From Candidatus Methanomethylophilaceae archaeon (GTDB lineage Archaea > Thermoplasmatota > Thermoplasmata > Methanomassiliicoccales > Methanomethylophilaceae): 64,000 nucleotides of DNA. The position numbers were made by a program, and so were the translations under genes. The stretch lies in assembly GCA_944320495.1 (NCBI GenBank), contig CALUHR010000006.1, positions 31,275-95,274 on the forward strand. Direction: 5' to 3'. Below, piece by piece: positions 35,026-35,662 of this stretch (its first letter is position 1; every line of letters starts with the position of its first letter). A model generated the notes under the pieces. It was not told the origin of the DNA. It made no database searches and saw only the letters and a program-made list of their open reading frames with translations.

Positions 35026-35662
35026 GTGCTCCCCGCGAATGCGGGGGTGATCCCTCTATCGTGCGATGTCCTCGATACCGGTGGATGTGCTCCCCGCGAA
35101 TGCGGGGGTGATCCCGGTGTCGGGTGGAAACTGATGGATGATTCCAGGTGCTCCCCGCGAATGCGGGGGTGATCCCTTGCCATAGAGCGAGTTCAACAGG
35201 GCTTTGAAGTGCTCCCCGCGAATGCGGGGGTGATCCGAGACGCGACGCTCGACAAAGACATCGTGCATTGTGCTCCCCGCGAATGCGGGGGTGATCCCTT
35301 CGCTGTGGTGGCCAATCCTGGGATAGCGAGGTGCTCCCCGCGAATGCGGGGGTGATCCGGTCTACCGCCTCCAGGCCATCGAGTGCATCAAGTGCTCCCC
35401 GCGAATGCGGGGGTGATCCCACCGAGACTCTTTCCGGACCACGCCAAACACCGTGCTCCCCGCGAATGCGGGGGTGATCCCACGACGACCAAGGTATTGG
35501 AGGGCCAGATAACGTGCTCCCCGCGAATGCGGGGGTGATCCCTCCGAGCGTGAGGGGACTGGGCTCGTGGTCGGGTGTTCCCCGAAATGCGGGAGTGATT
35601 CTACTCAAGCCAGTGGAAACTCCAGTGCGTTCAAGCATTCATTGCTAATGCGGGAGCAATCC
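35026..35662 (+). CRISPR. Type I-E array: 9 identical 28-nt repeats GTGCTCCCCGCGAATGCGGGGGTGATCC with 33-nt spacers, plus degenerate repeats at 35575-35601 and 35635-35662
   Basis: 61-nt period from 35026; stem CCCCGC/GCGGGG; decay at the leader-distal end. Confidence 0.97.

Follow-up and report, generated by a model that had tools for sequence, protein, structure and literature searches.

A type I-E CRISPR spacer of a chicken-gut methanogen that probably copies motif B of a protein-primed-type DNA polymerase gene

Type I-E systems typically use an AA-N PAM, the last base of which is carried into the array. The locus described here resembles E. coli-type I-E adaptation in its gene set, its hairpin repeat, its 61-nt period, the variable first base of its spacer units and the AA upstream of the protospacers examined. 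It differs from the E. coli system in that the host is an archaeon and in that the incorporated base is mostly C, whereas it is G in E. coli.

To our knowledge, described phi29-like podoviruses infect Firmicutes and Actinobacteria, and we know of no phi29-type virus that has been assigned to an archaeon, with the main methanogen-virus compendium lying outside our comparison. Two virus families examined below share with the Salasmaviridae-type phi29-like podoviruses the capsid, the connector, the Gp16 ATPase, the protein-primed family B polymerase (pPolB), an inverted terminal repeat (in L261) and a genome of ∼13 kb. Unlike the described phi29-like viruses, these two families appear to be associated with a methanogen whose genes are free of CGA, and neither is matched by spacer 3 of the array studied here. 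One reported virus associated with methanogens, contig C1697 (PMC9796341), has a protein-primed PolB, and its genome is presumed to be linear. That contig, which we compared by description only, is predicted to be spindle-shaped and belongs to a different host group.

The peptide read from spacer 3 can be set against motif B of the phi29 polymerase (PDB 1XHX/2PZS; PF03175, DNA_pol_B_2), KLMLNSLYGK, to which it is identical at 8 of 10 positions when aligned K to K. It departs from phi29 motif B in having F before the K and A after it, and the comparison extends over the 11 residues that are known.

The type I-E array and the place of spacer 3

The window, that is, the whole stretch of DNA analysed (64,000 nucleotides), belongs to a genome of 1.77 Mb in 14 contigs with 60-62% G+C, whose DNA was best represented in chicken-gut metagenomes. 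The genome encodes McrA and is thus that of a methanogen. The features of the CRISPR locus are collected in Table 1. The cas operon is complete, with all eight genes, among them that of the Cas3 HD-helicase, matched by Pfam (E-values of 1e-16 to 1e-118); the coordinates of the cas genes are those of table-11 ORFs. Repeats start at 35026 + 61n, with a degenerate tenth repeat at ∼35575, and 7 of the 33-nt spacer units begin with C, the other 2 with G. The system is type I-E by its full operon, its 28-nt hairpin repeat, its 33-nt units and its leader beside cas2. Leader position and orientation are as in E. coli-type I-E arrays. Since the leader adjoins cas2 and the repeats degenerate toward the opposite end, only two of the spacers are newer than spacer 3.

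Table 1. Coordinates of the CRISPR-Cas features within the window.
Feature	Coordinates	Strand	Basis or remark
Type I-E cas operon: cas3, cse1/cas8e, cse2, cas7, cas5, cas6e, cas1, cas2	25847..34810	+	Pfam, every gene
Leader, A/T-rich, cas2 to first repeat	34811..35025	+	Sequence read directly; leader role inferred
CRISPR array: 9 intact 28-nt repeats (GC hairpin), 33-nt spacer units, degenerate 10th repeat	35026..35601	+	
Repeat 3, upstream of spacer 3	35148..35175	+	
Spacer 3, third unit	35176..35208	+ (crRNA sense)	- strand reads FKALLNSLYGK
Repeat 4, downstream of spacer 3	35209..35236	+	
Spacer 9	35542..35574	+	27/33 bases identical to neighbouring leuA, 37439-37471

Spacers 3 and 4 were found in the same order on a contig of a second chicken-gut run (X3). 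The leader-end region (35026-35150) varied among contigs of four chicken-gut runs, with loose ends at 35053, 35084 and 35144, and contigs of run X4 carried an extra spacer at the leader end. These unlike leader-end spacers between runs indicate that the array has been adapting recently and that the population carries variants.

Two further observations concern the arrays of this genome. Differences between spacer 9 and the leuA site are mostly synonymous, and AA lies upstream of the leuA site; from its sequence, spacer 9 looks as if it had come from the leuA of a related archaeon or from a mobile copy. The genome also has, at another place (G000:C5, ∼274800-275000, - strand), a small array of I-E type, whose repeat differs slightly and which holds 3-4 spacers; no matches to these spacers were found.

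The peptide encoded by spacer 3 and the probable type of polymerase

The preliminary description had translated the reverse complement of spacer 3 as FKALLNSLYGK, and this translation is correct and free of stop codons. Three of the six frames of the spacer are open, namely the motif frame and two others, so that the reading frame was picked by the motif, after the fact, and not by stop codons. A regular expression for the motif (K...N[SA].YG) had its only match in the 1.77-Mb genome at spacer 3 (six frames, ∼3.5 million codon positions); the corresponding motif of the host's own PolB, KVLMNTFYGVFA, is not matched by it. Scored with a pPolB position matrix, FKALLNSLYGK was 23 bits likelier than under a uniform background. 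A Pfam scan of the 24-aa read-through gave no match, the query being too short.

A look-alike peptide, FKILFNSLYGK (9/11 identical), was encountered in a giant ORF (2916 aa) of a phage, with a weak baseplate-wedge match (L008:832-864, L010:3750-3782). Since this is a non-polymerase protein, the peptide alone is no proof of a polymerase, and short peptides call for caution.

When the phi29 polymerase (PDB 1XHX) was aligned to a pPolB from the same genus as the host (L016), the motif region aligned as AKLMLNSLYGKFASNP, and E. coli Pol II aligned as KIIMNAFYGVLG. These two alignments fix FKALLNSLYGK as motif B and bear out the preliminary description, which had given K-x3-NS-x-YG as motif B of family B polymerases. 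The same description had called the peptide protein-primed in type, unlike cellular archaeal PolB, and this was also supported: K or R follows YG in 56 of 60 PF03175 peptides versus 0 of 15 others, where both counts are of distinct motif-B peptides and the non-pPolB sample is small. In other PolB groups this position is occupied by A, V, F or Y. The cellular part of the 15 non-pPolB peptides came from 30 PolB genes of the order and from E. coli Pol II, the viral part from a haloarchaeal tailed virus and T4-like phages. Position matrices built from the 60 distinct pPolB and the 15 other PolB peptides favoured pPolB by 13 bits, and the best identity to FKALLNSLYGK was 9/11 among pPolBs and 6/11 among the other PolBs.

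Among pPolB relatives in IMG/VR, 80 loci gave 81 motif-B matches of the form K[LI][ML]LN[SA]LYGKF[AG], with KF after YG in 73. In one pPolB family (50 proteins) the motif reads AKLILNSLYGKFG or close variants, always with YGKF, and in a second family (120 proteins) it reads YGR. F before the K and A after the K of motif B are rare in the sampled pPolBs. Exact matches to KALLNSLYGK or FK-x-LLNSLYGK that lie inside polymerase ORFs in IMG/VR, JGI metagenomes and GTDB genomes were all in PF03175 ORFs; these comprise one KALLNSLYGK (L004/L106) and two FKLLLNSLYGK (L009, L012), which were retrieved with looser search patterns. The remaining matches to those patterns were discarded as noise from the degenerate Leu and Ser codons. 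We consider it likely, on the evidence of the encoded peptide, that spacer 3 is a copy of motif B of a protein-primed-type PolB (PF03175) gene, a class within which 11 residues do not separate protein-primed from primer-independent polymerases.

Another possible source is motif B of a PF00136-type (RNA/DNA-primed) PolB, carried by an archaeal tailed virus, by a family-2-type casposon or by the chromosome of another archaeon. NSLYG also occurs in T4-family polymerases, K-x3-NS-x-YG is common to all family B polymerases, and host-like DNA can be present in this array, as spacer 9 shows. However, the form K[VI]LMN-x-x-YGVFA is shared by every one of the 30 cellular PolB genes of the order, the second paralogue being without the motif. 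In the viral polymerases compared (the haloarchaeal tailed virus, three T4-like cyanophages and a Rhizobium phage) the residue after YG is A or V, and identity to the spacer peptide is only 5-6/11. Together with the lack of K or R after YG throughout the small non-pPolB sample and the 13 bits in favour of pPolB, these comparisons make a PF00136-type source quite improbable, and they point again to a PF03175 gene.

The search for the donor and the pPolB viruses linked to the genus

No protospacer of spacer 3 was found elsewhere in its own genome or, with up to 3 mismatches, in 261 genomes of the order. Neither the exact 32-mer nor a codon-degenerate pattern for FKALLNSLYGK had a match in IMG/VR, GTDB genomes or JGI metagenomes, and when INPHARED phages and PLSDB plasmids were searched by blastn, both the spacer and the array as a whole found only chance words and actinobacterial I-E repeats. 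Contigs of the four chicken-gut runs containing this genome yielded array pieces and variant spacers and no protospacer contig, although such contigs cannot show absence. An 11-mer search of 1.84 billion protein representatives gave 0 matches, where an exact 11-mer would reach only an E-value of ∼9, above the cut-off, so that this result is uninformative. A full-length polymerase gene holding the protospacer, with Exo motifs, TPR1/TPR2 insertions and motifs A and C, was thus found in none of the collections searched. The contig with a true KALLNSLYGK (L004, the same as L106; 29% G+C) was rejected as the target, sharing only 18/33 bases with the spacer.

Of 62 same-genus bins, 3 contained PF03175 genes, all on small contigs. 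One such contig (G148:C7, 37.6% G+C, motif KRYLNSPYGK) was set aside as probably foreign to its bin. The two PF03175 contigs with host-like G+C represent two families, the pPolBs of which are 24% identical to each other. Both families consist of phi29-like podoviruses of ∼13 kb (members reach 12-14 kb; L260, L261, L110, L111, L017, L016 and L159). L260 (1-12600), L261 (1-13125) and their relatives carry phi29 capsid, connector, Gp16 ATPase and pPolB genes. In L261 the terminal repeat is inverted and spans at least 90 nt; L260 and a G166 contig pair terminate in one k-mer present in inverted copies, the pattern that a collapsed terminal repeat would leave.

Bin membership by itself being weak evidence for a host, we used a codon peculiarity of the host to assign these viruses. 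In the Pfam-validated genes of region 25847-37562 of the window, none of 172 Arg codons in the bodies of cas3, cse1, cas7, cas6e and leuA is an in-frame CGA, off-frame CGA being common; where in-frame CGA appears in validated genes, it is at or near the gene ends. In the host PolB (L145) the first CGA falls 312 codons after motif B, close to where homologues end (+305 to +309); in table 11 the ORF extends 200 codons beyond this CGA, a pattern consistent with CGA acting as a stop codon. PolB genes in other families of the order do contain internal CGA codons. The phi29-like contigs, like the host, avoid the codon: in-frame CGA makes up 0/178 Arg codons in L260, 2/189 in L261 (both no more than 5 codons from a gene end), 1/110 in L110, 0/94 in L111, 0/58 in L017 and 1/56 in L159, and the true coding sequence of the L016 pPolB holds none. 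The total for these contigs is ∼4 CGA in ∼735 Arg codons, versus 389/2980 (13%) in 142 control IMG/VR pPolB genes. Judged by codon use alone, the two podovirus families are tied to a CGA-avoiding methanogen lineage.

A spacer match points the same way. A same-genus I-E spacer from genome G168 (L172:1957-1989) matches a structural gene of L260 (L260:1095-1127) at 28/33 bases with AA-C upstream; the mismatches are mostly synonymous, and the estimated chance expectation is ∼1e-5. At the level of sequence, this match is a direct CRISPR link from the genus to a pPolB podovirus. Contact of the lineage with pPolB viruses is thus supported, by the G168 match and by CGA avoidance, independently of spacer 3.

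Spacer 3 has a more distant relation to these viruses. Its peptide is absent from 240 relatives of the two same-genus pPolBs, the best matches in the two virus families being 9/11 and 7/11. Because neither genus-linked family carries the peptide, and because the F and A that flank the K are rare, the donor is expected to belong to a further, unsampled lineage. The 13 spacers of the genome had no match to any phi29-like locus in our set, and 99 spacers of same-genus arrays had none to L016-family loci; comparison of L016 with genomes of the genus turned up nothing beyond short chance matches, which lay in host genes and not in arrays. A search for IMG/VR relatives of the host PolB found none.

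The PF03175 donor might instead have been non-viral. Linear plasmids, pipolin-like elements (whose PolB is primer-independent) and family-1-type casposons all fall within PF03175 as well, and a stretch of eleven residues is too short to distinguish them from viruses. However, among 62 genomes of the genus and 65 near-complete genomes of the family, single-contig ones included, none had a PF03175 gene on a long chromosomal contig, which argues against integrated casposon-like elements, and the PF03175 contigs with host-like G+C that can be placed in the genus are phi29-like podoviruses. We regard a non-viral donor as even less probable than a PF00136-type source. The preliminary description had proposed that this host meets a virus, plasmid or casposon-like element with a linear genome and a pPolB. 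As far as a virus is concerned, the proposal is supported for the lineage, given its CGA-avoiding pPolB podoviruses and the match of the G168 spacer to L260; the casposon-like alternative gained no support, with no integrated PF03175 gene in the 65 family genomes.

Register of the spacer and a proposed origin

Spacer 3 ends exactly on the Lys codon AAG of the motif, and its first base, C, is the complement of the G of that codon. The codon that follows YGK in pPolBs is nearly always TTY, which reads as AA and then C-TT on the crRNA-sense strand. Lys-Phe (AAG TTY) after YG would therefore create an AA-C PAM and make this a natural protospacer site. Conversely, from the AA-N PAM and the YGKF found in 73 of 81 motif-B matches, we predict that Phe or Leu follows YGK in the donor, just outside the spacer. 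The PAM assignment rests on one diverged same-genus protospacer (that of the G168 spacer in L260), two protospacers of an unrelated array (L160) and one pseudo-site (in leuA), all with AA upstream and none of them a protospacer of spacer 3's own array.

The unrelated array provided a control. L160 (1-7214) is a 7.2-kb human-metagenome contig that consists entirely of a 117-repeat I-E array; it was retrieved with a sharp 11-mer profile from 5.8 billion protein clusters, which otherwise returned only spurious ORFs read across I-E arrays. Spacer 15 of L160 encodes AKLHLNSLYGK; it covers the motif-B site in exactly the register of spacer 3 and likewise begins with C. This peptide occurs in at least 79 IMG/VR contigs, each time in an ORF that continues with FA or LA (median 574 aa); TT follows the site in 77 of 79, and all three ORFs tested were PF03175. 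At the nucleotide level, the best match of L160 spacer 15 to IMG/VR pPolB genes was 27/33 bases, and other L160 spacers match the same IMG/VR phi29-like phages with AA upstream. The two arrays differ in their repeats, the host of L160 is probably bacterial, and the peptide of spacer 3, unlike that of L160 spacer 15, is in no IMG/VR pPolB gene. The identical register of this sister spacer indicates that the motif-B site has been taken repeatedly by I-E adaptation, and in L160 the peptide-level inference gave the right gene family.

That the true protospacer lies in an unrelated gene or in another frame, with the peptide meaningless, is the least probable reading of all: three of six frames are open, the frame was chosen after the fact and a baseplate-like phage ORF holds a 9/11 look-alike, but the motif is matched only here in 3.5 million codon positions, scores 23 bits over a uniform background and ends exactly at the Lys codon that creates the AA-N PAM, in the register of the sister spacer.

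Taking the PF03175 reading forward, we propose that Cas1-Cas2 took spacer 3 from the motif-B region (the dNTP-binding K-x3-NS-x-YG) of a PF03175 polymerase gene. We infer that the donor would have been a mobile element absent from the searched databases, most likely a small linear-genome virus like those linked to the genus. RAA-CTT on the strand opposite AAG TTY would have supplied the AA-C PAM, the last base of which would have become the first base of the 33-nt unit. If the system is active, the array would be transcribed from the leader and cut by Cas6e at the repeat hairpin, and the resulting crRNA, antisense to the polymerase mRNA, would guide Cascade to the polymerase gene, where Cas3 would degrade the invader DNA. 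The donor would be expected to be CGA-free and to carry FKALLNSLYGKF. In the wider picture, to which we give about equal credence and doubt, a CGA-free methanogen genus would be infected by phi29-like podoviruses of ∼13 kb that have been purged of CGA, with spacer 3 recording a third, unsampled lineage of them.

For a CRISPR array to hold a spacer against a viral polymerase gene is ordinary, and the value of this one is as a lead. It suggests an encounter between a chicken-gut methanogen and a pPolB-encoding element not represented in IMG/VR, JGI metagenomes, GTDB genomes, INPHARED and PLSDB. A by-product of following it is the pair of CGA-avoiding phi29-like virus families, one of them matched by a same-genus spacer. 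Codon use alone could serve to assign viruses to the CGA-avoiding methanogen lineage, and the lineage may offer a natural system for studying how viruses adjust to a host in which CGA would mark the ends of genes. If the wider picture is true, these would be viruses that track a sense-to-stop code change in their host.
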